A stretch of 64,000 bases of DNA. Source: a virus. How positions within the stretch are numbered: the stretch's first letter is position 1; each line of letters opens with the position of its first letter. The stretch is taken from the IMG/VR virus record IMGVR_UViG_3300006923_000005, one strand, 5' to 3'. Shown here one piece after another: positions 9,091-40,693 of the stretch. The position numbers were made by a program, and so were the translations under genes. Below the pieces are notes generated by a model, which had not been told where the DNA came from, did not search any database, and saw only the letters and a program-made list of their open reading frames with translations.

Positions 9091-9501
9091 ATGAAATATC
9101 CAACGATGAAATTTTTACTAGAAAGTGCTGATGCAAACAGCACAGTGACGATTGACTATGGCAGCTACGGTGTGTCTGCAGCTGGCCCAGGCGGATACGA
9201 TGTTGGTGAACGTGATGTTCCTGACCACTGGGAAATCAAAGCTGCGCATGGAACAGATGAGTGGCAAGAGGAATGGATTGGCAATCTCATGATTGACATC
9301 ATGAAGGACCCCAAGGTTAAATCTGTTGTTGACACTGAGTGGACTGGTCACTCTGGGACTACTGGCATTTATGACAAAATTCCAAAGCTGCGCTGGGCCA
9401 AGAAGGTTGCAGCAACGCTGCAAGATCCTGATTGGGGCCGAGGTGCTGAGCTTCCTGGCTTCTGGCCACAACATGATGATGATGATTTCATGGGTAATTA
9501 G
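9091..9501 (+). CDS. Leader-bearing protein (MKYPTMKFLLESA...), a putative virion-packaged cargo protein.
   Basis: ATG after a GGAGTGA RBS. The N-terminus matches the 11-member leader family. Confidence 0.6.
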   Translation: MKYPTMKFLLESADANSTVTIDYGSYGVSAAGPGGYDVGERDVPDHWEIKAAHGTDEWQEEWIGNLMIDIMKDPKVKSVVDTEWTGHSGTTGIYDKIPKLRWAKKVAATLQDPDWGRGAELPGFWPQHDDDDFMGN

Positions 9502-9516: not shown

Positions 9517-9625
9517 ATGTTTCCAACTGTCAGCCAACTGTTAAGCGAAGCGCAATCAAGCCAGCAAAAGCCTACACAGCCAATCCCTGCTGAAGTTATA
9601 ACTGTCAAAGGTGAAAGAGATTAAT
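9517..9625 (+). pseudogene. 36-codon remnant of a leader-family gene (MFPTVSQLLSEAQ...). It runs into the duplicated ruvC 5' segment and stops there.
   Basis: The leader is intact but the body is missing. The stop lies inside repeat R2a. Confidence 0.4.
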
Positions 9626-9671
9626 GCAATGCTACTCATCGGACTCGACGTCAGTACTTCCTGTACTGGCT
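9611..9671 (+). repeat. 61-bp direct repeat R2a: RBS plus the first 14 codons of the ruvC-like gene (MLLIGLDVSTSCTG).
   Basis: Identical to 10392-10452. Confidence 0.8.
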
Positions 9672-9680
9672 TCAGTGCTT

Positions 9681-9706
9681 TTCAAGCTGAGGCACGACAT
9701 CTAATG
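9681..9706 (+). repeat. 26-bp direct repeat R1b. It supplies the RBS and ATG of the kinase gene.
   Basis: Matches 8229-8254. Confidence 0.7.
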
Positions 9707-10390
9707 TTCCCCACAATGTCGTATTTACTTGAGTCTGATTATACAGACAACGTGTCCAAGGCAGATGTTGTAGAGGCACTGGCGCAGGAGGGATATGTTG
9801 GTGCTGTAGAAGTAGGTGACGGATTTCACGGAACTGTTTGGTCAGCGACTGACCAGCAGGGCCGGCAGGTTGCAATCAAAACTCACTATGCGTATCGGCT
9901 TGAGCTTGACACGATCAAGAGAGAGATTGCTGAGTATAAAAGGCTTAAGGGAGCGCTGCCAAGCAATTTGAGCAAGCACCTCATCCAGTTCTATCGAGTC
10001 TTCTTTTTGCCAATTGGCTTTGGCGATCACATGACACCGTGTGTTGTAGCTGAATTTCTTGAGCCGTTAAATTCTGCCGAGCAGAAAGAGGTTGCTTTTC
10101 TTTTTGGGTTGCTTGACGATGATACAGAAGTTCTTAGCTACACTGGGCCGTCGAATTGGAATGACCCTCTACCGCACCAAGATCGTCTAGATAAGATTGA
10201 AAAGCTGCGTGCCAAAGCAGGCACGTTGCAGACCATGGTAGATTTCCTTGAGGCGTCTAGTCTGTTCTGGGCTGACGTGAGTCCCGGGAATGTAATGAAG
10301 CGCCCACGGACAAAGGAGCTGGTTTTCATTGACTACGATTACTGGGTCATGCCAACTGTGTATCCCTATAAGTCACGCGGCCTTTATTAA
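9704..10390 (+). CDS. Eukaryotic-like Ser/Thr protein kinase with the family leader (MFPTMSYLLES...).
   Basis: Gly-rich loop GDGFHGTVW, VAIK beta3 lysine, alphaC Glu (REIAEYKRL), catalytic-loop-like WADVSPGNVM and a DFG-like FIDYD. It is in frame with the upstream duplicated ruvC start, but an internal ATG with the conserved leader is the likely start. Confidence 0.6.
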   Translation: MFPTMSYLLESDYTDNVSKADVVEALAQEGYVGAVEVGDGFHGTVWSATDQQGRQVAIKTHYAYRLELDTIKREIAEYKRLKGALPSNLSKHLIQFYRVFFLPIGFGDHMTPCVVAEFLEPLNSAEQKEVAFLFGLLDDDTEVLSYTGPSNWNDPLPHQDRLDKIEKLRAKAGTLQTMVDFLEASSLFWADVSPGNVMKRPRTKELVFIDYDYWVMPTVYPYKSRGLY

Positions 10391-10391
10391 A

Positions 10392-10452
10392 GTGAAAGAG
10401 ATTAATGCAATGCTACTCATCGGACTCGACGTCAGTACTTCCTGTACTGGCT
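10392..10452 (+). repeat. 61-bp direct repeat R2b, the functional 5' end of the ruvC-like gene.
   Basis: Identical to 9611-9671. Confidence 0.8.
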
Positions 10453-10958
10453 ACACTGTCTTTCGCAGATTCACTGAAGGCGATGAACTCGTCGGCATGG
10501 GATTCATCAAGCTAGGGAAGCACAAGACGCTGTTCGGCAAGATCAGCGCTATCACAGAGAAGATCGACGATCTCATTCGAGATGCGCGCCCCGGCGATAC
10601 AGAACCCGTCAAGTTCTACACAGCGGTCCCTCTGAAGCGCACAGGCTTCGGCAGTATCAATACAATCACACTTCTTTGGATGTTCCACGGAATGCTTTCA
10701 CAAGCGCTCTGGGAAAGTTATGGCATTGAATTGCTAACAATCAAAGAGAATGAAGCTCGTCGCCAATTTGGCATTGTGAAAGATAAAAAAGCAGGGATTC
10801 ATATCAAAGAAGCTGGCCGCCTGTTTACAATGAAGGATATTGAGATGTACAATTATCCTATGGAGTGGGAATACACCCGGTCCGGCAATGTAAAAGGTGG
10901 GACTTACGATATGACTGATGCATATGTCATTGCAAAGTTTGCCCTAGCACTCTGCTGA
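10410..10958 (+). CDS. ruvC: RuvC-like Holliday junction resolvase (RNase H fold).
   Basis: N-terminal LIGLDVSTSCTGY (catalytic Asp) and C-terminal DMTDAYVIAKFA, which matches the RuvC H-x-x-DA-x-AIA motif. Confidence 0.65.
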   Translation: MLLIGLDVSTSCTGYTVFRRFTEGDELVGMGFIKLGKHKTLFGKISAITEKIDDLIRDARPGDTEPVKFYTAVPLKRTGFGSINTITLLWMFHGMLSQALWESYGIELLTIKENEARRQFGIVKDKKAGIHIKEAGRLFTMKDIEMYNYPMEWEYTRSGNVKGGTYDMTDAYVIAKFALALC

Positions 10959-15019: not shown

Positions 15020-15401
15020 ACAACTCGATGCAATGATTCGCCCAGCAATGCGTGAGGCGCGCCTCATCTATGAATTCAAGCGTATAGATGAAAAAACGTC
15101 TAAGCAAGGGCCCCTGTATGAAGGAACTGTTGATAAGCTATCAGCAATTTTCAAGGTTGGAAAGACAAGAGACTTTGAAATGGTTGGGCGCGCCCTTGCT
15201 AAGGTATACCATGAAAATATCGGCCAATTATCAGACGCTGGCTGGCGAAAGTTGCTTGAGGTAATTGCGCAGCTTATTTCGCTTGTTGATCAAGGAAAGG
15301 CGTCACCAGAACAATTGTATTTGCATGTGCTTCGTGTAATTGAGACTCTTAAAAAGAGGGAAAGCCCAAGCAAGCAAGAGGAGCCAGAAGGCGAGGAATA
15401 A
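14997..15401 (+). CDS. Hypothetical protein.
   Basis: Overlaps the sbcDC 3' end. Acidic C-terminus. Confidence 0.45.
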   Translation: MPRQLTTEQLDAMIRPAMREARLIYEFKRIDEKTSKQGPLYEGTVDKLSAIFKVGKTRDFEMVGRALAKVYHENIGQLSDAGWRKLLEVIAQLISLVDQGKASPEQLYLHVLRVIETLKKRESPSKQEEPEGEE

Positions 15402-15402
15402 T

Positions 15403-15684
15403 ATGAGAATGCAAGGTGCAATTGATACAATTCTTGAAAAAATCATTTCAAGAAAATTAATGGCGTGGATTGTCACGCTCGTCTTGCTACTTCTTTTTGC
15501 AATTTTTGGATGGGATGTTCAAGATCGTCTTGTAGATGTGTTTAGAGATGTAACAATGATGTATATTGGAACAGTTGGCGTGATTGATGCTGTAAAAGCT
15601 TATAAGGGGAAACCATCAATTATTGGAACCATTGCTGCAAAATTTAAATCAAACGATGATGAGGAAATTATTGATGATCCTTAA
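15403..15684 (+). CDS. Small single-pass membrane protein, a possible holin-like protein.
   Basis: GAGGAATAAT RBS. TM segment LMAWIVTLVLLLLFAIFGW. Membrane-protein genes follow it. Confidence 0.45.
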   Translation: MRMQGAIDTILEKIISRKLMAWIVTLVLLLLFAIFGWDVQDRLVDVFRDVTMMYIGTVGVIDAVKAYKGKPSIIGTIAAKFKSNDDEEIIDDP

Positions 15685-15991
15685 GAGTAAATTAAAGAAG
15701 TGGGGCTGGAAGATTGCCGCTGGTGTTGTAACTTTGCTTATTTTACTAGGGTTTATTCTTGCTATCATTTTGCCGAAAGAAAAATCTGAAGCTGTGATTG
15801 TAGCTGCGATTGATGCGCAAGGGAAGCTTGCTGACAATGCAAAAGAACATGAGGTTCGGATTGCTGTAGCAGAAACAAAGCACAGCGAAGGCAAAAGGGT
15901 GCTTGAAGAGAAGCTCGCAGAAATTGATGCAGAGCCAGATTCACTTCGCCGCCGAAAGGCCTTAATCGCGATGCACAGAGAACTACTCTAA
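15674..15991 (+). CDS. Type II membrane protein with a periplasmic coiled coil (i-spanin-like topology).
   Basis: N-terminal TM KIAAGVVTLLILLGFILAIIL followed by a charged helical region. Confidence 0.45.
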   Translation: MILKSKLKKWGWKIAAGVVTLLILLGFILAIILPKEKSEAVIVAAIDAQGKLADNAKEHEVRIAVAETKHSEGKRVLEEKLAEIDAEPDSLRRRKALIAMHRELL

Positions 15992-16461
15992 TGCGTTCAT
16001 TTATTGCACTTCTGGTTGCAATCGCAGTGCTTGCAGTTCCAATGCAGGCCGCAATTGCTATTGAACCAGAAGTAACTGTAGAGCTCAGGTCAGACTTTGA
16101 CCCACTTGCGATTGATTATGAGCATACAGACCCTGACACAGGCGTAACTGTTGTGCTACAGGGTGTTCTACTATCTGAATCAAGTTATCGTGATTTGCTC
16201 TTTATACAAAAAGAGCTCAAACTTGATCTTGATCTTGCATCAAGCCAAGCAGAGTCTTGGCGGCTCCGCTGGGAAGTTGACATGCAAGTTAAGAACGCGC
16301 ACATTGGCGTTCTTGAAGTCCAATTATCTAAAACAAACACATGGTTTGCAAGGAACAAGGGCGGCATAGGCTTTAGTCTCGGCGTTTTTGTAACTGTCCT
16401 TTCTTCAATCGGACTAGCATATGCATTTGCAGGCGCCGGAAACGTCGCCGGAGGAAACTAA
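15991..16461 (+). CDS. Secreted or membrane protein with an N-terminal signal peptide and a C-terminal hydrophobic segment.
   Basis: Signal-like MRSFIALLVAIAVLAVPMQAAIA and C-terminal GVFVTVLSSIGLAYAFAGAG. Confidence 0.5.
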   Translation: MRSFIALLVAIAVLAVPMQAAIAIEPEVTVELRSDFDPLAIDYEHTDPDTGVTVVLQGVLLSESSYRDLLFIQKELKLDLDLASSQAESWRLRWEVDMQVKNAHIGVLEVQLSKTNTWFARNKGGIGFSLGVFVTVLSSIGLAYAFAGAGNVAGGN

Positions 16462-25001: not shown

Positions 25002-25062
25002 GAGAATTTAAACTGTTCACTAAACCAAGGATAGTTATAGAAGAACCTGTGAGAGAATATAA

Positions 25063-25896
25063 ATGACGCACAACAAGAAGAGAAATCTCGGTGTAACTTG
25101 CGATCTAATCGTGCACAACATTGCGCGCGATACAATGGATGGCAACAAGCAGCGTGCTCGGGTCGGTGTTAACATGCTAGAGCGATACTTTGGTAAAGGC
25201 TCTCCGCTTGTTGAAGAGTATGCTCCATTCAGCATAGTTCGTGAAATGCGAATTGCTGATTTAAGCCAGGCTGACAGAACACTTGATCGTATCTTAGCAG
25301 CTGCGGCCGCAACAACAACAAACCTTGACCATGTTAAAACATCATTGATTCATGAGATGAATCGTGTGTATGGTCAAGATGTCTGGGGTACAAAGATTCC
25401 AGATTATAAGCTGTACGCTTCACTGCAGCAATTGATTACTGCACGCAAGTCTGGAATGCTGTCAGAAGCGCGTCTTGTATCTGAGCGTAATGCAGTAATT
25501 AGCCACATCACACAACCACTTGCCGAAGGCAGCGATCTACTTCAAGAATTCGATGATCCTCTTGTTCAAGTGATGATGACAGCTAATTTCAATAAGCGTT
25601 ACGCTGAGCTTCCAGGCCCAAATAGAAAGCTAATTGAATCGTTTGTCACTCATGGCATCGCGGGCACATTAGACAAGTTTAACGAGAAGCTTGATCAATA
25701 TAAGCAGGTTCTTGATAATCGCGTTAATCGTGCACTTGAGTCAGGAAACCTCACAGAGCATGTTATCTCTACTGTTCGTGAAGCGCAGGCAGTTCTTGAA
25801 GCTGCCGAGGGTGATGAGAGAGTAACACTCATCATGGAATATGCAGATCTCTCAAGGGAGCTTGAGGGAAATGATCATGCAATTAACCAAAAATGA
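25063..25896 (+). CDS. Hypothetical protein in the head-gene cluster.
   Basis: ORF in the gene-dense region between portal and protease. Confidence 0.5.
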   Translation: MTHNKKRNLGVTCDLIVHNIARDTMDGNKQRARVGVNMLERYFGKGSPLVEEYAPFSIVREMRIADLSQADRTLDRILAAAAATTTNLDHVKTSLIHEMNRVYGQDVWGTKIPDYKLYASLQQLITARKSGMLSEARLVSERNAVISHITQPLAEGSDLLQEFDDPLVQVMMTANFNKRYAELPGPNRKLIESFVTHGIAGTLDKFNEKLDQYKQVLDNRVNRALESGNLTEHVISTVREAQAVLEAAEGDERVTLIMEYADLSRELEGNDHAINQK

Positions 25897-27796
25897 TAAA
25901 GAGAGTGTCTCAAATATGGCGCAGCAGACAGTTGACGAGCGTGAAGCCCAGCTCCCAGAAGGGCTCGCCGAGGGCCTAATTGACGATGAAGATATTGAAA
26001 GCCTCAACGTTTTAGGTAGTCAAGCAGAAGAAACATCGGATCAGCTCCGCGTTGTTGGTAATTACATCGACGATGTCGGTGAGGACTATCACGAAAATGC
26101 TGCAGCTGCCGTTCAAGGCATAACAGCTGGTGGCTCAGATTCAAAGCCTCTCAAGAAGCATATCTTTGATGAAGCAAGCATCGCCGATATTGAACCCCAT
26201 TCTAAGACTGCAGCATTTGTTCTGTTTCACAATCGCGGCAAATTCCTTGTAGCTTTGCGTGCACCCGGTGGCGATTGTGGTGAAACATGGAGCAACATCG
26301 GTGGCGCCCAGGAAGCTGAAGATATTATCTCTGGTGATCCGTACACGTCATTTGTTAGAACAGCTGCACGAGAAGTTGGTGAAGAAGTTGGCGCAATGCC
26401 TGTAACTGCGAAGATTCGCGGGCACTACATGCATGAAGGTGAAGGTTTCAAGGCGTTGAACTTTATTGCTGATATTGATGATAAAACTGCAGACAACTGG
26501 AAGTTTGAGCTTCAAAAAGATGAGCTCACTGAGATTAAGTGGGCAACATTAAGCGAATTGAAATCACAGGCAAGAGATTTGCATCCGGCCTTTCGGCGAA
26601 TGCTCTTTAGGTTCTATGGTTCTGATGGTGCTGAAGTTATGGATCCGTTTGAGGGTGAGCCAGGCGGCAATCTTAAGTTCAAGCAGGCTCCATCTCGCAA
26701 ATCAAAGTCACCGACAATACCAACTGGTCGAATGTCGACAGGTGAACCAAATGCGCTGTATGGTCGTGGTTTGTTCCAGGTCGATCACGTACTTCGGGAA
26801 GACGGACCATATAACATGGTCGGAAACCCAAGTAGCGATAATTATATGAGAGACTTGTTCACACCTGACACTATTGTCTGGTACGACGGTGATGGAGTTA
26901 ATATTCCATCCTCAATTTTTGGAGAGGGACGCATAATGTCTGATCTATTCACAGCACTTTTTGAGGATTGGTCACCTGACGTTCCTGATGCAGAGCTCGA
27001 AACAAAAGATATCAAGAAAGCGGGTGACAAATCTGCAATTGATAAAGAGCGGCCAGAAGATGTAGAGCGCTACGGTGAAGATTATATCTCTGATTCAAAT
27101 AGCTCTGATATGCGCTCACCATGGGCCAGCATGTCAGAATTGTTTGATGCTGATAATGAGTCTCCTGGCGCAAAAAAGCTTGCGAAGGCAAAGCCTGAAA
27201 GCAAAACAAATGCTGCTGACCAGCGTTTAATTACATATGAAGGTTCGGGTAAAATTGATAAGTCATGGCTTGATGAATTTGATCTCCTTGAGTGGTATCG
27301 CATCGCAGAGGCAAACGATGAGCCTGAGGGCGAAGATGAAAAGGGTCCTGATTCAAAAGCAGTAGATATCAACCTTGATAATGACGCAGATCCAGATGAT
27401 GTTGCGTCAGTAAATTACGACGACGTAAAAAATCCAAGTGATGATATAAAGCGCGTCCAAGATAGAGATGACAAGCCAGATGAACCTGAAGAGCCTGCTG
27501 ATGAACCTGAAGAGGGCGACCACGCTGACGTCGGAGAGGACGGTGAAATCGACGAAGAAACGTTGAAGCGAATTCAGAGTAAGCTTGCTTCGTTCATCAG
27601 CAGGTCACTTCAGTCTGATGACCCCATAAAAGTTTTTATGTCTGGCAACTCTGTTGTTATGCAGTTCAATCGAGTTTCAAATAAGCAAACGGTTCAGTTA
27701 GTCATTGCTTCACCATCTTCTGTAGCACTTAATGTGGGACGAAAGACTGATGATGAAGCAGTTGTTGGCACAGCAATCTCAAGCGTGAACCTCTAA
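25841..27796 (+). CDS. Nudix-hydrolase-domain protein with a long acidic, low-complexity C-terminal region (start uncertain, 25871-25916).
   Basis: Nudix-box-like GGAQEAEDIISGDPYTSFVRTAAREVGEEVG. D/E/P-rich tail. Confidence 0.55.
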   Translation: MQISQGSLREMIMQLTKNDKESVSNMAQQTVDEREAQLPEGLAEGLIDDEDIESLNVLGSQAEETSDQLRVVGNYIDDVGEDYHENAAAAVQGITAGGSDSKPLKKHIFDEASIADIEPHSKTAAFVLFHNRGKFLVALRAPGGDCGETWSNIGGAQEAEDIISGDPYTSFVRTAAREVGEEVGAMPVTAKIRGHYMHEGEGFKALNFIADIDDKTADNWKFELQKDELTEIKWATLSELKSQARDLHPAFRRMLFRFYGSDGAEVMDPFEGEPGGNLKFKQAPSRKSKSPTIPTGRMSTGEPNALYGRGLFQVDHVLREDGPYNMVGNPSSDNYMRDLFTPDTIVWYDGDGVNIPSSIFGEGRIMSDLFTALFEDWSPDVPDAELETKDIKKAGDKSAIDKERPEDVERYGEDYISDSNSSDMRSPWASMSELFDADNESPGAKKLAKAKPESKTNAADQRLITYEGSGKIDKSWLDEFDLLEWYRIAEANDEPEGEDEKGPDSKAVDINLDNDADPDDVASVNYDDVKNPSDDIKRVQDRDDKPDEPEEPADEPEEGDHADVGEDGEIDEETLKRIQSKLASFISRSLQSDDPIKVFMSGNSVVMQFNRVSNKQTVQLVIASPSSVALNVGRKTDDEAVVGTAISSVNL

Positions 27797-27807
27797 GGAG
27801 ATTAATC

Positions 27808-28407
27808 ATGGCTGATCGAAAAATCCTCTGCGAATTTTACCAGCTTGAGTATGATGCTGACAAGCTTCGTGAGGATGTGGAGGCTGGTCGTGACATCATC
27901 CTCTCTGGCCGGTGCCAGCATGCTGATTTGGGAAATGCAAATGAGCGCAAGTATCCGCGTGAAATTCTTGAACGTGAAGTTCAAAATTATCAAACACCCA
28001 TTCAAGAGCGAAGAGCGTATGGAGAGCTTGATCATCCACAAGACACTGTTGTAAACTTGCAGAAGGCATCACACATGATGACTGAAGTCTGGTGGGAAGG
28101 TGATGAAGTTTTTGGAAAGCTTAAGCTAATGGGAACCCCGACAGGCCAAATTGCTGAGGCAATCCTTAAGGCAGGCGGAGTATTAGGAATTAGTTCACGC
28201 GGAGTTGGTTCGACACAAGCCTCTGGTGGCTTTGATGTAGTCCAAGATGATTTCCAATTAATTTGCTTTGATTTAGTATCTGAACCATCAACACCCGGTG
28301 CATACGTGCTACCAGAAGGCAAACGGATCTTGCGGCCAAGAGAGCGAAATGATCGCATCACCAGGATTGCAAACAATATAATTTTCCACAAGCGTGGCAA
28401 GGAGTAA
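27808..28407 (+). CDS. 21: Prohead core protease (T4 gp21 family, peptidase U9).
   Basis: RKYPREILEREVQNY, GELDHP, ISSRGVGS and FDLVSEPSTPGAYV match gp21. Confidence 0.8.
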   Translation: MADRKILCEFYQLEYDADKLREDVEAGRDIILSGRCQHADLGNANERKYPREILEREVQNYQTPIQERRAYGELDHPQDTVVNLQKASHMMTEVWWEGDEVFGKLKLMGTPTGQIAEAILKAGGVLGISSRGVGSTQASGGFDVVQDDFQLICFDLVSEPSTPGAYVLPEGKRILRPRERNDRITRIANNIIFHKRGKE

Positions 28408-35701: not shown

Positions 35702-36232
35702 TTATGTCTGTGCGACCAGGATGCCAGTTGCAACAATATTAAACACATCGATACTTGAGACATCATCTCTAGCTTTAAAAACAATCTTATCGTTTGTGCT
35801 GGCACGGAGCCGAAGACCCCACTGCAGCCCGTATGTCAACGCTGTATCAAGAACTGGGATATATCCCTCAGACGTTCCGCTAACATTACTTGCTCTAAAT
35901 GCTGTTGCTCCATCACCGAATGGTGGATTGCCATGAGCAAGTCTAATAAAATCAAAATTTGTTTTTAAGCCTTCATGCAGTGTAATACTGCCATTCGAAT
36001 CTGTAACCCATGTAAATTCTACACCGTTTGATAATGCAGCAATATTGCCAAATTTACTCAAGACTGCATTTGTATCAACTATTGAAAAAGAGATTGCTTT
36101 AACGTAGATGTCAGTAGCAAAACCCATACTATTGTAATTAGGAGACTGCCAGCTATTTTGCCCATTCTTAAAAGCATATGAAGCATAGTTTGAGCTAGAT
36201 ATATTGATGACATGCACCGTAGGAGGGCGCAA
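35702..36232 (-). CDS. Lone minus-strand gene for an Asn/Ser/Thr-rich beta protein of unknown function (start uncertain, TTG/GTG/ATG).
   Basis: The only minus-strand ORF not nested inside a + gene. The opposing + ORF (35601-35936) has a non-protein-like composition. Confidence 0.45.
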   Translation of the reverse strand: MRPPTVHVINISSSNYASYAFKNGQNSWQSPNYNSMGFATDIYVKAISFSIVDTNAVLSKFGNIAALSNGVEFTWVTDSNGSITLHEGLKTNFDFIRLAHGNPPFGDGATAFRASNVSGTSEGYIPVLDTALTYGLQWGLRLRASTNDKIVFKARDDVSSIDVFNIVATGILVAQT

Positions 36233-37446
36233 TGGGCTTAGACAATTCTACATTCCTTCCAGCGCAGGTAATTGGTTCAACAAGCTTTGGGATCTATGAT
36301 ACTGACCTACAGTTTTTAACTGCAGCTGCAGCCATGCCAGCTTTTGTAAATAAGAAGTTGGGAGGCTCAATTCTTCAAGTTGAACTGCTACCTGCTGATG
36401 TCTTTTCATCCATGGAAGAAGCTGCACTTGAATACGGTGCGCTTGTAAATAGTTACCAAGCTAAATCAGCCCTTGCAGATTTGATGGGAAGCCAAACTGG
36501 CTCCTATGATGCTCACGGAACTGTCTCGGGTAGTGTTGATGGAACGCAAAAGTTTCCAAATAACAGCATGGCGTGGGCAGAGAATGAGGCAGACGCAATC
36601 GCCGAACATCTTGGAATGGGAGGTTCTAAACGTGTTTATTCTGGCTCTGTTGTTCTTGTTGCGAATAAGCAAGAATATGATTTTGCGTCGCTACTTAGCG
36701 CTTCGAACCTTCATGGCGAAGCGACGGGCAGGGTTAAGATTAAAAAGGTCTTCCACACAGAGCCAGCAGCAGCATATCGTTTCTTCAACCAAACATCATA
36801 CCTGAACTATCTCAACAACGAGTTCAAGTTCGAATCGTTCACACCTGAAACAGCTTTCTATCTCTTACCGATTTGGGAAGATGTACTTCGTGCGGGCATG
36901 CTTGAAATGAACCAGCGTGTACGAAGGTCAAACTTTTCGTATGACTTCTTTGGTGAGAATGTTGTTCGCATCTTCCCATCACCAACTGCAAATGATAATG
37001 GGCGTAAGCTCTGGGTGCACTACACTGTGACTCCAGGACCAACGTCAGGCGCAAACTCAGAGCCATATACAACTACAAACATCAATACAAGCAGGATTGA
37101 CGGCGTTGCTAACATTGGAAACGTTCCCTTCGGCAATATCTCATACAACACAATCAATGGCATCGGCCGCCAGTGGATCAGGCGCTACACAGTTGAGCTC
37201 TGCAAAGAGATGCTCGGGCAGGTAAGAAGTAAGTTTACCTCAATTCCTATTCCAAATGCTGACGTAACGCTTAATGGTCCAGATCTTGTCCAGGAAGGTC
37301 GTGATATGCAATCACAACTTAAAGACGAGCTCAAAGATCTAATGGAAGATACAACTTACGATAAGATTATCGCCAGAGAAGCTGATAAGGCGCAAGCGCT
37401 CGAAGATGTTTACAAGCGAACTCCACTTCTAATTGTAATGGGATAA
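36232..37446 (+). CDS. Hypothetical structural protein, possibly neck or head completion.
   Basis: ORF lying between the head and tail modules. Confidence 0.5.
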   Translation: MGLDNSTFLPAQVIGSTSFGIYDTDLQFLTAAAAMPAFVNKKLGGSILQVELLPADVFSSMEEAALEYGALVNSYQAKSALADLMGSQTGSYDAHGTVSGSVDGTQKFPNNSMAWAENEADAIAEHLGMGGSKRVYSGSVVLVANKQEYDFASLLSASNLHGEATGRVKIKKVFHTEPAAAYRFFNQTSYLNYLNNEFKFESFTPETAFYLLPIWEDVLRAGMLEMNQRVRRSNFSYDFFGENVVRIFPSPTANDNGRKLWVHYTVTPGPTSGANSEPYTTTNINTSRIDGVANIGNVPFGNISYNTINGIGRQWIRRYTVELCKEMLGQVRSKFTSIPIPNADVTLNGPDLVQEGRDMQSQLKDELKDLMEDTTYDKIIAREADKAQALEDVYKRTPLLIVMG

Positions 37447-37470
37447 TTTGACTGAGCTACTTACACTATA

Positions 37471-38007
37471 ATGGCACGATTATTTACATCTGAAGAAGAA
37501 AGGCTCATGGTGAATGAGTTGACTCGCGAAATTGTACAGAAAGTCGCCGGGCAACAAACATTCTACTGCGGAATCAGCAGGGAGCATACAAAAACACATG
37601 ATATTTATAATGAGTCAACTCGCAAAGTTTATCTTCCGCCTGCGTCTATCAACGCTCTGGTCTTCTTTGAAGAGCCAAGACAATCGACAACAGACGCTGG
37701 ACCAGATAGAATCCACAGAATCGAAGTCTATTATCACAACGACGAATTAAGACAGCGGAATATCAAAGTTCGCACAGGCGACTTTGTTATTTATGGCCCA
37801 GTTGTTTACGAGATTCTTGAATCTAAAGAAGACCAGCACCTTCACGGTATGGTTGAATATCCCATTATGACTAAATGCATTTGCCAGACAGCACGCAAGG
37901 GCTCATTTGACCCCCGCTTTGTGCGTCCAGCAAATGCACAGGGTCTTGCTCGAAATAATCGCCCGGGAATTACAGGTGGTGATTATGACAGTCCATACTA
38001 CGACTAA
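37471..38007 (+). CDS. Hypothetical structural protein.
   Basis: ORF. Confidence 0.5.
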   Translation: MARLFTSEEERLMVNELTREIVQKVAGQQTFYCGISREHTKTHDIYNESTRKVYLPPASINALVFFEEPRQSTTDAGPDRIHRIEVYYHNDELRQRNIKVRTGDFVIYGPVVYEILESKEDQHLHGMVEYPIMTKCICQTARKGSFDPRFVRPANAQGLARNNRPGITGGDYDSPYYD

Positions 38008-38093
38008 ACAGAGTTACTAAGTTTAAGCTGCGCTGTATAGTTAAAATATGAGGTAAAAAAAGAGAACGAACTCGACCCTCCGGGAGTATAGGT

Positions 38094-39011
38094 ATGTCCG
38101 GGCGCAAAGCATTTTCCATTTTTTTCACTGCAATTTTCATTTTACTTGCAGGCTGTAGCGACGTTTCAATCGGTCGCTATGTAACAGATACTATCTATTT
38201 ACCGCCAGGTTCTCCAGAAGTCCATGTGCAAATCTGGGAACAACCAGCATTTGTTGATGGGACGGACATTATTTGGGCCATTGATCGCAGTGGTTCAATG
38301 TGGGATGATGATAATAGAATTGTGGCAGGCATTAATGCCATGATGACTGCGCTGCCGCCAGGCGAAGACTGGAGGTTGACGATAATCTCAACTGATCCCA
38401 ATGAGTCTGTTGATAATGACAGATTTCCACTCAACCCTTTCAGCACAAGCGATGATGTCTGGGATGCTTATATTGCAATCGGCGAACCACAGCAGGAAAA
38501 GGGCTTTGAAGCAATCATGGAGTATATTGATCACGGAACATACGCAAGTACTTGGATGCGCGATGATGCATACACACAACTAGTTGTGGTGTCAGATGAA
38601 GATGATTCATCAACCATTGATGCTCCTGAGTTTGTTGATTGGCTTGATGGATTTCATGAATCATCATTCTCTGCTATTGTTGGACTTCCAGGCGTTCCCT
38701 GCAGTAGTGTATGGTACTCAGGTGATGAGTATGTAGAGGCTGCAAATGACAGCGGCGGCCTGGCTATTGATTTTTGCGATGATTGGGGCCTTGCTGTTCA
38801 AAACCTTGCAACACAAACAGACTTAACAGAGCAATTTGTCTTAGATTACATACCTGATGTCACAACAGTCATTACGACAGTGAATGGTGTTCCCAACGCT
38901 GAGTGGACATACGACATGTCAGTCAACGCAATTACTTTTGACGTTGCAACAGATTATGAAGATACAATCTTAATCGCTTACGCACTTCCCTACGAGGCAC
39001 CAACTGAATGA
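38094..39011 (+). CDS. Lipoprotein with a von Willebrand factor A (vWA) domain.
   Basis: Lipobox FILLAGCSD after a signal peptide. MIDAS motif AIDRSGSM. Confidence 0.6.
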   Translation: MSGRKAFSIFFTAIFILLAGCSDVSIGRYVTDTIYLPPGSPEVHVQIWEQPAFVDGTDIIWAIDRSGSMWDDDNRIVAGINAMMTALPPGEDWRLTIISTDPNESVDNDRFPLNPFSTSDDVWDAYIAIGEPQQEKGFEAIMEYIDHGTYASTWMRDDAYTQLVVVSDEDDSSTIDAPEFVDWLDGFHESSFSAIVGLPGVPCSSVWYSGDEYVEAANDSGGLAIDFCDDWGLAVQNLATQTDLTEQFVLDYIPDVTTVITTVNGVPNAEWTYDMSVNAITFDVATDYEDTILIAYALPYEAPTE

Positions 39012-39739
39012 ACATTCTCAAACATTTCCTTTCATTTGCCATAGCAGTGGCGCTTGTGCTCACACCTACAGCAGTTTTATCATCACCTCCATCAATGGAT
39101 ATGCGCTGGGCAATCCAGTCAGCTGTGATGGTACACATCACTGGTCTTGCGCCTACGCCTGTTGGTGATTTCCAGCGAATCGGTGGCGGAGGCTCAGGAA
39201 CAGCAATCCATACAGTCGGGGGAAAGACACGCGTCTTGACAGCAGCGCATGTTTGTGATTTGGGTCCAGCTGCTGTTTTTGTTAGGGCAACTGTGACAAC
39301 ACATGGAAGAAATATAATGGAGGGTCGTGTCATTGCACTGGATCATTCAACTGATCTCTGTGTCATTGATGTTAAGGGTACAATACGATCTATAGATGTT
39401 GCAAATAGCATGCCTACCGCTGGAACAAAATGCGCGATTGTTGGCGCCCCGGGCCGCAGATATGGTCCTCAAGCATGGCCAACACATGACACACTTCTAC
39501 TTAACGGTCCAACCATTGTACCCTTTGCAAGAAGCCCAATTAAAGACGCAGTTTGGGAAGTTACTGCAGATTTAACAGGTGGCTGGTCAGGAGCTGGTGT
39601 CATTTGCGGTGGACGCATCGCAGGCATAGTTTTTGCTGTTGATAGACACATCGGAGAGTTGGCATATATTATTCAAGTCGACTACTTAAAAAGCTTCCTT
39701 GCTAAGCATGATGCAAGAAAGGACTGGAGTAAGAAGTGA
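39008..39739 (+). CDS. Secreted trypsin-like (S1/chymotrypsin fold) serine protease.
   Basis: Signal peptide. His motif LTAAHVCD, Asp DLCVID and Ser motif GGWSGAGV. Confidence 0.65.
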   Translation: MNILKHFLSFAIAVALVLTPTAVLSSPPSMDMRWAIQSAVMVHITGLAPTPVGDFQRIGGGGSGTAIHTVGGKTRVLTAAHVCDLGPAAVFVRATVTTHGRNIMEGRVIALDHSTDLCVIDVKGTIRSIDVANSMPTAGTKCAIVGAPGRRYGPQAWPTHDTLLLNGPTIVPFARSPIKDAVWEVTADLTGGWSGAGVICGGRIAGIVFAVDRHIGELAYIIQVDYLKSFLAKHDARKDWSKK

Positions 39740-40629
39740 CAACAGGCGCGAATGTTCAAGAAGAAATTGTAGAACTACCAGTATCGCTTCAACGGCTTGA
39801 AGATGTTGATAGGGCAATGGTGCAGCTTTTTCGTGACCGCCTGAATGTTGCAGTTACAGATGATGGGGGAACTCGTCCGTTTTCAGTTATTATGGCGACT
39901 GGTGAACGTTGGGCAATGGTAAGAGATAGAAAGGTGCCTCGTGATGATAATGGCGCACTCATTCTACCTGTTATAACAGTCCGCAGAACAGCCATTGATC
40001 GCCGCGTCCCACCATCACAAGCTGTTGTCGCAAATGAATCACCGCATATTACTGTTGTGAAAGAAATTAATAGAAAGACACCACTACTTCGAAACAGTGT
40101 CGAAAATAGAAGCTTCCCGTTAAATAACCAACAGCAAGTGGCACCCATTTTTGATGTGCGCACAATTCCGCACCCTGATCCCATTAGGGTTGTATATGAT
40201 GTGAAAATCTGGACGCAATACCAGACACACATGAACATCATTCTTGAGAAAATCTTTAACAATTTTGATTACGGAGACACGTTTAAGCTACAAATGGCCG
40301 ATGGTTTCTATTGTGTCGCGAATCTTGATCCAAATGTGTCAGCCTCAGACAATTTTGAGGAATTCACAGATGATGAACGAATCATTCGTTATACAATGAC
40401 GTATACGGCTAATGTCTCACTGGTACTTAATCCAGATAGTGACACAACCTACACACACGCAGATATTGGTGGCACTGGAAAAAGTGTTAAGCGAGTATTA
40501 CAGACGCCTGCGCAGATTAAATTTGCTGTCAAAGAAGGTGTAGTTTCAGAAGCTGCATTGATTGAAATTCTTGACGGCTTAAACGTTAATCCGCGTCTTA
40601 AGGCAAGACTGCTAAATACACCACGCTAA
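39736..40629 (+). CDS. Hypothetical protein, possibly a tail-completion or sheath-initiator region.
   Basis: GTG start overlapping the previous stop. Lies upstream of the sheath gene. Confidence 0.5.
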   Translation: MTTGANVQEEIVELPVSLQRLEDVDRAMVQLFRDRLNVAVTDDGGTRPFSVIMATGERWAMVRDRKVPRDDNGALILPVITVRRTAIDRRVPPSQAVVANESPHITVVKEINRKTPLLRNSVENRSFPLNNQQQVAPIFDVRTIPHPDPIRVVYDVKIWTQYQTHMNIILEKIFNNFDYGDTFKLQMADGFYCVANLDPNVSASDNFEEFTDDERIIRYTMTYTANVSLVLNPDSDTTYTHADIGGTGKSVKRVLQTPAQIKFAVKEGVVSEAALIEILDGLNVNPRLKARLLNTPR

Positions 40630-40693
40630 AAAAACACATTTGCCTTTGCTATACGATAGTTAGTTATAGAATTCTGCATAGGAGAACTGATCT

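Follow-up and report, generated by a model that had tools for sequence, protein, structure and literature searches.

Two overlapping genes at positions 38094-39011 and 39008-39739 of the plus strand, in a window of 64,000 nt from IMG/VR virus record IMGVR_UViG_3300006923_000005, encode a predicted lipoprotein, with a von Willebrand factor A (vWA) domain that holds a metal ion-dependent adhesion site (MIDAS), and a putatively secreted serine protease of the chymotrypsin fold (S1). The window is part of an uncultured, marine T4-like ("far-T4") myovirus, and both proteins are encoded, in identical form, on a 179-kb metagenomic contig of which it covers 64 kb. Our comparative analyses strongly support that these two genes (here, the cassette) constitute a conserved, phage-specific exported module whose components are inherited together. 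Their N-terminal signals make it very probable that both proteins are exported, and they probably act as a functional pair, as had been put forward in the initial annotation of these genes, which was made from the sequence alone; this idea is now backed by the linkage of the two genes, in three different gene orders, in 54 of 80 IMG/VR loci. The complete statement, which runs from an exported, two-protein mobile accessory module up to and including an adaptor-protease mechanism, has in our opinion an even chance of being correct.

The Upstream Gene Encodes a Putative MIDAS Lipoprotein

The main features of the lipoprotein gene are as follows.

38094-39011, plus strand: MIDAS (vWA) lipoprotein gene, 305 aa, with lipobox, short N-terminal beta strands, vWA domain and C-terminal beta-rich region
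38094-38156, plus strand: predicted lipoprotein signal peptide, residues 1-21 (n-region with R4 and K5, hydrophobic core FSIFFTAIFILL, lipobox L-A-G-C21, Ser at +2)
38262-38813, plus strand: vWA/MIDAS domain, approximately residues 57-240 (D64-x-S66-x-S68 at 38283-38297, E135, S167-D168-E169)
38826-38993, plus strand: C-terminal beta-rich region, approximately residues 245-300 (DSSP strands 247-297)

The N-terminus of the deduced product, MSGRKAFSIFFTAIFILLAGC, fits the PROSITE lipobox rule PS51257 (charged n-region, hydrophobic core and the pattern [LVI][ASTVI][GAS]C, with the Cys at positions 15-35), which confirms the LLAGC lipobox, with Cys21, that had been noticed initially. This open reading frame (ORF) was the only one among the 56 of the window to match the rule, and we found no further credible coding-strand lipobox ORF of at least 30 aa in the 64 kb. 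The pattern is retained in 59 of 68 unique viral homologs, and the homologs P0002-P0007 all show it. From such a signal peptide, lipidation at Cys21 and membrane anchoring outside of the cytoplasm would be expected.

The DRSGS motif, also recognized in the initial annotation, occupies residues 64-68 (nt 38283-38297) and belongs to a complete MIDAS: residues D64, S66, S68, E135 and D168 are invariant in the family and align with the MIDAS positions of integrin beta-6. In all, the invariant columns of the lipoprotein alignment are D64, S66, S68, D101, E135, R156, S167, D168 and E169. The family profile matches the I-like domain of integrin beta-6 (E 8e-4) in an alignment spanning DxSxS, EKGFEA and VSDEDD; at the residue level, the EKGF motif containing E135 pairs with EGGFDA from integrin beta, and the VSDEDD motif containing S167-D168-E169 with integrin beta VSDADS. 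An AlphaFold2 (AF2) model generated from eight homologs (pLDDT 75.9) retrieved vWA proteins and integrin beta chains as the top matches in a Foldseek comparison against PDB (probability 1.0, E 4e-10 to 1e-6), the highest ranks being a bacterial vWA protein, an inter-alpha-inhibitor heavy chain and integrin beta subunits. DSSP assigned to this model two N-terminal strands (residues 30-49), the vWA domain (57-240) and five C-terminal strands (247-297); the N-terminal strands and the C-terminal region probably form a small beta domain, within which the vWA domain is inserted. The C-terminal beta region also produced short matches (57-69 columns) to tail-fiber and tail-spike beta modules of phages in BFVD.

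A Pfam search with the window lipoprotein retrieved no match even at E <= 1, and the gathering score of PF00092 (VWA) was not reached; among its relatives, the distant P0014 passes this threshold (27.3 vs. 23.8 bits) and P0007 is just under it. The protein was likewise unrecognized by PHROGs and PADLOC. Because PF00092 misses the window protein, its membership in the vWA superfamily rests on the structure and profile evidence, which places it, as judged from the predicted fold, as a vWA/MIDAS domain nearest to integrin beta-I domains.

The Downstream Gene Encodes a Minimal S1 Protease With an Export Signal

The protease gene contains the following features.

39008-39739, plus strand: gene for a putatively secreted S1 (chymotrypsin-fold) serine protease, 243 aa, without PDZ
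39008-39082, plus strand: predicted Sec-type signal peptide, residues 1-25, MNILKHFLSFAIAVALVLTPTAVLS followed by S, from the homolog alignment
39248-39589, plus strand: codons of the catalytic triad, His81 (CAT, 39248-39250), Asp116 (GAT, 39353-39355) and Ser194 (TCA, 39587-39589)

The likely cleavage site of the signal peptide, VLS↓S, aligns with the canonical AFA↓A of the closest homolog, P0010. The triad lies in the motifs TAAHVCD (His81), DLCVID (Asp116) and GGWSGAG (Ser194), and H81, D116, S194, G192 and G195 are invariant in seven partner proteases that are 21-52% identical to that from the window. The signal peptide and triad initially assigned to this ORF were both confirmed. Pfam Trypsin_2 (PF13365) was passed with 38.9 bits (cutoff 27.6, E 1.9e-9, model positions 1-143 of 144); thus, from the two profile matches that had been anticipated, that of Trypsin_2 was obtained and that of VWA was not. 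The only PHROGs match of the window protease was phrog_9683 (protease), and PADLOC gave nothing but generic protease-domain matches for the cassette. An AF2 model of the protease (pLDDT 76.2) retrieved Rv3671c/MarP, HtrA1, Deg1 and DegS with Foldseek (E approximately 4e-11, TM 0.56-0.69, probability 1.0), and the NCBIfam MarP family (NF033740) was matched with E 3.8e-12 and 45.9 bits, against a cutoff of 250, over the protease domain only (model positions 217-379). No PDZ domain was found in the protease with Pfam, and the protein stops around 30 residues past the protease domain. We therefore rejected its assignment to the HtrA/DegP/DegQ/DegS group (S1C), for which it also scored 16.8 bits with TIGR02037 against a cutoff of 416, as well as to the MarP family, since it lacks the N-terminal four-helix membrane domain, has a single signal peptide and scores under the NF033740 cutoff. 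A role as the head maturation protease was also rejected, because there is a separate gp21-type gene (27808-28407, phrog_207), whereas the protease studied here belongs to phrog_9683 and carries an export signal. Conserved cysteines are found in both proteins, C203/C228 in the lipoprotein and C83, C118, C142 and C200 in the protease, and these pairs fit disulfides, which suggests an oxidizing compartment outside of the cytoplasm. From its sequence and model, the enzyme is a minimal S1 protease, with an intact, active-looking His-Asp-Ser triad and devoid of a substrate-recruiting PDZ.

The Two Genes Are Linked in Diverse Viral Loci

The family search with the lipoprotein yielded 18,157 cluster representatives at E <= 1e-3. 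In IMG/VR, 192 stretches encode a relative of the lipoprotein, and we fetched 80 of these (32-39% identical, in contigs of up to 289 kb) together with 80 bacterial and archaeal loci from a genome collection. A scan of viral contigs with a two-sequence protease alignment produced no match, and the partner proteases surfaced only by profile searches of the ORFs from the loci fetched with the lipoprotein; the profile was seeded with the window protease, P0010 and four ORFs that precede the lipoprotein gene elsewhere, and was iterated once. In this way, a protease ORF of about 240-280 aa was found linked to the lipoprotein gene in the 54 loci mentioned above, with the following arrangements.

45 loci: protease immediately downstream of the lipoprotein gene, with a gap of mostly 9-22 nt and a few overlaps under the ORF calls used
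7 loci: protease 0.8-1.2 kb upstream, on the same strand, with the surrounding genes on the other strand
2 loci: protease immediately upstream of the lipoprotein gene
26 of 80 loci: no protease within the fetched flanks

The partners comprise three subtypes, and one representative of each passed Pfam Trypsin_2 with 46.7-61.2 bits. The linkage extends to subtypes that are just 21-25% identical to the window protease and conserve the triad, and all 46 unique partner proteases start with a signal peptide, a lipobox (L020, L061, L095 and L096) or a membrane anchor. The conservation of the lipobox, the MIDAS residues, the triad and these N-terminal signals among homologs exceeds what coincidence would produce. 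The pairwise identities of the two proteins co-vary between loci (Spearman 0.79), as would also result from a shared phage phylogeny.

Outside of viruses, the pairing was found in only two of the 80 bacterial and archaeal loci, both of which are among the three closest, phage-like matches, and one of which is on a short contig from a metagenome-assembled genome (MAG). These are L096 (CP070664.1, "candidate division WOR-3 bin77 chromosome," 6.7-17.6 kb) and L095 (Pelagibacter MAG contig, 8.2 kb), where a lipobox protease immediately precedes the lipoprotein gene; both probably are phage DNA, from a prophage or from a viral contig that was binned wrongly, and might offer a clue to hosts. The remaining bacterial relatives, with 24-31% identity, are overwhelmingly from predatory lineages (Myxococcota, Bacteriovoracaceae, Halobacteriovorax, Bradymonadia and Oligoflexia), with a concentration in Bdellovibrionota and Myxococcota. 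Tandem arrays of 2-4 lipoprotein paralogs occur in Myxococcota and in MAGs labeled as "Rickettsiales" (L153, L154, L128, L164 and others), and many of the arrayed paralogs are larger, with extra N-terminal repeats such as MopE-type metal-binding motifs.

Neither gene was retrieved by nucleotide and protein searches, including tblastn, of the 50,697 phage records of INPHARED, in which both proteins were used as encoded in the window and in the main group, and our literature search found no description of a phage pair of vWA lipoprotein and protease. The near absence of the pairing from bacterial loci, and its absence from deposited phages, therefore indicate a phage innovation, so far seen only in uncultured marine viruses. 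It is highly improbable that the two are unrelated accessory genes, neighbors by chance and with no functional coupling: this would agree with the loci having no protease in the fetched flanks, yet it has to face the linkage in three gene orders, its persistence among homologous but very divergent protease subtypes, the restriction of the pairing to viral or phage-like loci and the overlap of start and stop codons in the window.

The cassette is inside a neck-tail operon only in the window and in its relative L001. Elsewhere, its neighbors are small unknown genes and genes for a NUDIX hydrolase, a DNA helicase, Hsp20, PhoH, a CTP-transferase-like protein, HNH and AhpC; these non-structural neighbors in other phages therefore identify it as mobile accessory cargo, and not as a virion component. 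In the L016-L027 group, both genes are on the strand opposite to that of their neighbors, in a moron-like arrangement.

The Cassette Lies Within a Neck-Tail Operon in the Window

The context of the cassette is defined by the following genes.

22277, plus strand: portal gene
27808-28407, plus strand: gp21-type prohead protease (phrog_207, E 2e-49)
32480, plus strand: major capsid protein gene
36232-37446, plus strand: gp13-like neck protein, 404 aa
37471-38007, plus strand: 178-aa conserved protein in the slot held by gp14 in T4, outside the cassette (87.6% identity in L001)
39736-40629, plus strand: gp15-like tail-sheath stabilizer, outside the cassette, marking the late structural operon (PF16724 E 1.6e-5, phrog_227; 87.5% identity in L001)
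40694, plus strand: sheath gene
44189, plus strand: tube gene
46149, plus strand: endolysin gene
46793, plus strand: baseplate hub gene

The location within the structural region, initially described as between head and sheath genes, can thus be refined: the cassette follows the gp13-like neck gene and the 178-aa gene (36232-38007), whose product has no family match in Pfam or PHROGs, and precedes the gp15-like gene, with the sheath gene next. The capsid protein is nearest to those of Microcystis phage Mel-JY01, Flavobacterium phage "immuto" and Rhodothermus phage RM378 (32-49% identity), and a DNA-level search of INPHARED with the window region found no close deposited phage.

Three signals mark the boundaries of the two genes.

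38082-38086, plus strand: Shine-Dalgarno-like GGGAG, 7 nt 5′ of the lipoprotein ATG, read from the sequence
39008-39011, plus strand: ATGA overlap between the protease start and the lipoprotein stop, consistent with translational coupling
39736-39739, plus strand: GTGA overlap between the start of the gp15-like gene (GTG, 39736) and the protease stop

The ATGA overlap reported in the initial annotation is therefore accompanied by a second one, and both are also present in L001. The spacer preceding the lipoprotein gene (38008-38093, 86 nt) contains GGGAG and the AT-rich TATAGTTAAAATA. Between the cassette and the gp15-like and sheath genes we found no terminator-like site, scans for sigma-70-like promoters and terminators gave nothing over the shuffled expectation, and the T4 late promoter sequence TATAAATA is not enriched (three matches vs. 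1.35 expected) and does not occur upstream of the cassette. We found no shift in base composition of the cassette compared to its flanks, and no flanking repeats around it. Its position in the structural operon, with no separating terminator, would imply late expression in the window phage only. Similar AT-rich motifs are found 5′ of three genes, GATAGTTATAGAA before 25063, TATAGTTAAAATA before 38094 and GATAGTTAGTTATAGAA before the sheath gene (spacers 25002-25062, 38008-38093 and 40630-40693), and may be a phage-specific late promoter element. Minus-strand ORFs within the region (e.g., 38932-39333) were dropped, as they lacked support and are antisense to conserved genes.

The initial annotation called exported proteins unexpected among structural genes. 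This was overstated: the lambda morons lom and bor, located in or near the late structural region, encode envelope proteins acting on the host surface. Classic morons have their own promoter and terminator. The cassette differs from lom and bor in that it is coupled into an operon and has no terminator of its own, and it does not qualify as a classic moron because of this lack, the 4-nt overlap with the gp15-like gene and the absence of an excess of sigma-70-like sites.

Proteins from the genes flanking the cassette are 81-88% identical between the window and L001, vs. 49% for the lipoprotein and 51% for the protease; likewise, nonsynonymous divergence (dN) reaches 0.42 and 0.46 in the two cassette genes, compared to 0.08-0.13 in those that flank them, while synonymous divergence (dS) is saturated throughout. 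A recent horizontal swap of the cassette between both phages was discarded on the grounds of the saturated dS of all genes and of an identity profile without sharp edges, which indicate a faster in-place divergence of the proteins instead. Accessory genes normally evolve faster than sheath proteins. The neck module upstream of the 178-aa gene does show a mosaic boundary: the window (36232-37446) has the 404-aa gp13-like protein and L001 (1-1424) contains two ORFs (142 and 321 aa) in which no similarity to this protein could be detected, and segments of 41-61 nt resembling window positions 37449-37509 recur at L001 positions 9-69 and 457-497.

The prohead protease gene adjoins a 651-aa ORF (25841-27796) with a MutT/NUDIX domain (phrog_1198), of the same family as the NUDIX gene that is the conserved downstream neighbor of the cassette in the main IMG/VR group. 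At least 10 ORFs share the leader M-K-(F/Y)-P-T-(M/I)-x-x-L-L-x-E-(A/S) (e.g., MKFPTIQKLLLEAS, MKYPTMKFLLESA, MFPTVSQLLSEA and MKFPTITGLLTEAE), which is found at 9091, 9517, 19223, 20637, 21767, 24057, 34450, 43257, 43460, 44905 and 55434, always on the plus strand and at the start of an ORF or close to it; the mechanical ORF list places several of these starts farther downstream. In T4, the gp21 protease cuts the capsid-targeting sequence of internal head proteins after L/I-x-E. The shared leader resembles, in its sequence, this targeting signal, and a gp21-type protease is present at 27808. Other marine phages bearing the cassette (L046, L075, L020 and L022) also have families of proteins with stereotyped N-terminal leaders, for instance MKLIMENWRKYLxE or MKLLLENWRQYITE in L046 and L075 and MKITKRQLRRIIKEE or MKVTKRQLLKIIREE in L022, which may represent a similar targeting-peptide system that uses another sequence. 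Lastly, a 76-nt direct repeat (9608-9683 and 10389-10464, 93% identity) is at the 5′ ends of two ORFs that are 781 nt apart and both start with VKEINAMLLIGLDVSTSCTG, which suggests tandem paralogs or a partial duplication.

Possible Roles of the Cassette

In the mechanism that we propose, the lipoprotein would acquire a lipid at Cys21 that tethers it to a membrane, outside of the cytoplasm, and would display its MIDAS vWA domain, and the protease would be translated by coupling from the same message and exported via Sec. The lipoprotein would serve as the binding or targeting subunit, whose MIDAS metal would capture an acidic residue of a host envelope protein, and the protease would then cut the captured protein or its neighbors, in a manner comparable to NlpI-Prc and complement factor B. 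In the window phage, the module would be expressed late, with the tail genes. This division of labor between adaptor and protease could as easily be right as wrong. Its purpose is a guess, which we offer as possible and tentative: the pair may mask or destroy the receptor of the phage, or another surface protein, so that superinfecting phages and, above all, fresh progeny would not be wasted on the dying cell and its debris. The purposes put forward in the initial annotation, superinfection exclusion, receptor modification and envelope remodeling, are likewise conjectural. T5 Llp also shields progeny from receptors on debris. We rank the potential purposes as receptor masking or destruction, followed by outer-membrane breakdown at lysis, action on another envelope protein, surface adhesion and, as unlikely, a role in the virion.

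Several observations weigh against this explanation. The lipoprotein appears without a nearby protease in 26 of the 80 IMG/VR loci, and therefore it can act alone, the protease not being obligatory. The exclusion proteins Imm and Sp from T4, and Llp from T5, all from lytic phages, are made early, unlike what the operon context implies for the cassette. The lipoprotein signals are compatible with a location in the inner leaflet of the outer membrane, on the cell surface or in the inner membrane. Furthermore, the lipoprotein has no sequence similarity to the Llp and Cor families (no family in PHROGs, and no tblastn match in 50,697 phage records). Finally, in the main IMG/VR group it evolves no faster than the adjoining NUDIX gene, being equally conserved, and a general arms-race signature is thus unsupported.

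The first alternative, which we consider unlikely, is that the pair is an accessory for lysis and egress that attacks outer-membrane tethers, such as those of the Lpp, OmpA or Pal type, or activates wall hydrolases of the host, replacing or assisting a spanin. A candidate lysis cluster is present in the window.

15340-15684: small membrane protein with one helix
15623-15991: type II membrane protein with a long, charged coiled coil, similar to an inner-membrane spanin (i-spanin)
15991-16461: 156-aa protein with a signal peptide and a C-terminal hydrophobic segment

No outer-membrane spanin (o-spanin) with a lipobox was found beside this cluster, so that the i-spanin-like ORF has no adjoining lipoprotein partner, and the cassette contains the sole lipobox protein in the 64 kb. 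Co-transcription with late tail genes, as deduced from the overlaps and the lack of a terminator, would also suit a function in lysis, as would MarP/Rv3671c being the nearest solved fold and family match of the protease; MarP processes the wall hydrolase RipA. However, 22 kb separate the cassette from the candidate holin/spanin cluster, its distance to the endolysin gene (46149) is 7 kb, and it never adjoins lysis genes in other phages. Additionally, a 305-aa MIDAS protein is unlike any known o-spanin, which are small and proline-rich, and, as the window represents only 64 of the approximately 179 kb in its contig, an o-spanin may be encoded elsewhere.

It is quite unlikely that the pair functions in counter-defense or host takeover, by binding and degrading a periplasmic or outer-membrane protein other than the receptor, such as an envelope-stress sensor, a defense sensor, a pilus or another surface structure. 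The architecture of an exported binding subunit plus a protease would equally fit this function, and neighbors in other phages include takeover and auxiliary genes (PhoH, Hsp20, NUDIX and AhpC); nevertheless, the PADLOC matches are only generic and, if expressed late in the window phage, the proteins would come late for such a purpose.

Improbable too, in our view, is a surface adhesin, for which the lipoprotein would be flipped to the surface so that the infected cell sticks to cells or particles before lysis, raising the local density of hosts, while the protease would trim or release the adhesin. Its closest characterized relatives are indeed surface adhesins (Bd0875, at the predator-prey junction, and CglB and CglD, in gliding motility), its bacterial relatives are concentrated in predatory lineages, which need to bind other cells, and late expression agrees with this role. 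As a parallel, the removal of CglB from the cell surface by a protease in some glt mutants was deduced by its authors from the effect of EDTA, which kept the protein cell-associated when present during growth (PMC9946355). Against this, identity to the bacterial adhesins is only 24-31%, with scores far under the family cutoffs, and surface exposure would have to be assumed. We know of no phage precedent for an adhesin on the surface of the infected cell.

Hardly credible is the explanation that both are virion-associated neck or tail proteins whose N-terminal hydrophobic segments are not export signals: the location between gp13-like and gp15-like genes, with translational coupling to the latter, the short matches of the small beta region to tail-fiber and tail-spike modules and the partial matches of relatives, all under the cutoff, to a phage distal tail protein family favor it, but homologs from phages and from bacteria retain the lipobox and signal peptides, the bacterial ones are cellular lipoproteins, the conserved cysteine pairs suggest an oxidizing compartment and the cassette is outside structural modules in every other phage lineage examined, among genes for NUDIX, helicase, Hsp20 and PhoH. 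The detection of the proteins as structural components of the virion, contemplated in the initial annotation as evidence against an exported pair, is thus improbable.

A broader proposal, which we regard as rather unlikely, is that the cassette works as a phage-specific weapon on the envelope that had gone unrecognized, in which phages have coupled a relative of prey-binding adhesins to a dedicated secreted protease, with the lipoprotein displayed late on the surface and either gluing the cell to neighbors and particles or stripping it of its own receptors, in order to aid transmission in dilute seawater. If true, it would represent a new class of phage module for host manipulation, widespread in uncultured marine myoviruses and absent from cultured phages. 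The absence of the cassette from the 50,697 deposited phage genomes, compared to the 192 IMG/VR stretches that encode the lipoprotein, constitutes a blind spot due to cultivation bias. The relationship of the lipoprotein to the MIDAS adhesins with which predatory bacteria hold their prey leads to a testable idea of binding, the metal-dependent capture of an acidic residue, and the conserved catalytic triad affords a clean loss-of-function mutant. Once identified, the target would disclose either a novel way of destroying receptors or excluding superinfecting phages, or a novel step in cell exit, and it might lead to the receptor used by a large group of uncultured marine phages, and hence to their host.

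Comparison With Known Systems

Two known systems were discarded as equivalents of the cassette. Two-component spanins consist of a small, proline-rich outer-membrane lipoprotein, whose gene is embedded in, overlaps or is adjacent to that of a type II coiled-coil membrane protein, in a lysis cassette. The window lipoprotein, of 305 aa, with a globular vWA domain and a protease partner, is not a spanin, and its gene is not beside the endolysin gene (46149) or the holin-like cluster (15340-16461). The vWA-MoxR-VMAP ternary conflict systems, as outlined in PMC10907252 (on Kaur et al., 2020), combine vWA and trypsin-like domains in the cytoplasm and need a MoxR AAA+ ATPase and VMAP. A relationship with them was rejected because the neighbors are neck and tail genes, no ATPase was seen in the conserved neighborhoods and both proteins have export signals.

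Few phage genes act on the host envelope from outside of the cytoplasm, most of them small (Llp, Cor, Sp, Imm, Lom and Bor), and, to our knowledge, in none of these cases is a binding subunit combined with a protease of its own. Llp, Cor, Lom and Bor have their general strategy in common with the cassette, but not their sequences, and Llp (T5) and Cor (phi80 and N15), in particular, are lipoproteins of only about 60-80 aa that lack an enzyme partner. A comparable working logic is found in NlpI-Prc from E. coli and LbcA-CtpA from Pseudomonas, in which an outer-membrane lipoprotein recruits substrates for a soluble periplasmic serine protease. The likeness is restricted to this logic, with no homology, since these are TPR adaptors with S41 proteases containing PDZ, vs. 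a vWA protein and an S1 protease without PDZ in the phage. In complement factor B and C2, the chymotrypsin-fold protease is positioned by a MIDAS vWA domain, which attaches to the target via a metal ion. Again, this is an analogy of mechanism only, as factor B is a single eukaryotic polypeptide with CCP domains, whereas the phage cassette codes for two separate proteins with export signals. The phage protease is similar to HtrA/DegP/DegS and MarP in its fold, triad order and predicted extracytoplasmic site, and it has a Cys beside the catalytic His as in MarP, but it contains neither the PDZ from HtrA nor the four-helix membrane domain from MarP, and it reaches only 17-46 bits with NCBIfam models with cutoffs of 250-450.

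For the lipoprotein, the best sequence-profile match among solved structures is the integrin beta I-like domain, with which it shares DxSxS, E-G-G-F-D/E-A (EKGFEA in the phage) and VSD-x-D. This match is at the level of the domain, with 10-17% identity, and the phage protein has no hybrid or PSI domain and no alpha-subunit partner. Probably closer in architecture are two groups of bacterial proteins. CglB is an outer-membrane vWA lipoprotein that acts as an adhesin in the gliding of Myxococcus xanthus (Islam et al., 2023, PMC9946355). Both CglB and CglD, as outer-membrane lipoproteins, resemble the phage protein in having a MIDAS vWA domain and a small beta domain, a jellyroll similar to tailspike modules of phages, and relatives of the phage lipoprotein produced weak matches to the CglD model, far under the family cutoff. 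However, CglB is larger, cysteine-rich and works with the Glt machinery, and there are no Glt genes at the phage locus.

Bd0875 and Bd1483 from Bdellovibrio (NCBIfam NF052240, "MIDAS family adhesin") are also alike, with a lipobox at around Cys21-22, predicted disulfides and approximately 300-380 aa. In these proteins, the lipobox is followed by a beta-rich domain made up of N- and C-terminal segments, within which the MIDAS domain is inserted, and Bd0875, which depends on its MIDAS motif, is located at the predator-prey junction (Tyson et al., 2024, PMC11003981). The order of secondary-structure elements in the window lipoprotein, which was the only aspect compared, matches this published layout. 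Its relatives P0004, P0006, P0007, P0060 and P0074 match NF052240 (E 2e-18 to 1e-5, 25-67 bits vs. an equivalog cutoff of 700); the window lipoprotein gave no match to this model and is thus a distant relative, and not an equivalog. It also differs from the Bd0875 type in lacking the "cap," as far as its length tells, and in being encoded by a phage and paired with a protease bearing an export signal, while the bacterial loci are unpaired. Together, these comparisons indicate that the phage lipoprotein probably shares the architecture of Bd0875/Bd1483 and CglB/CglD, to which it is distantly homologous, below the family thresholds.

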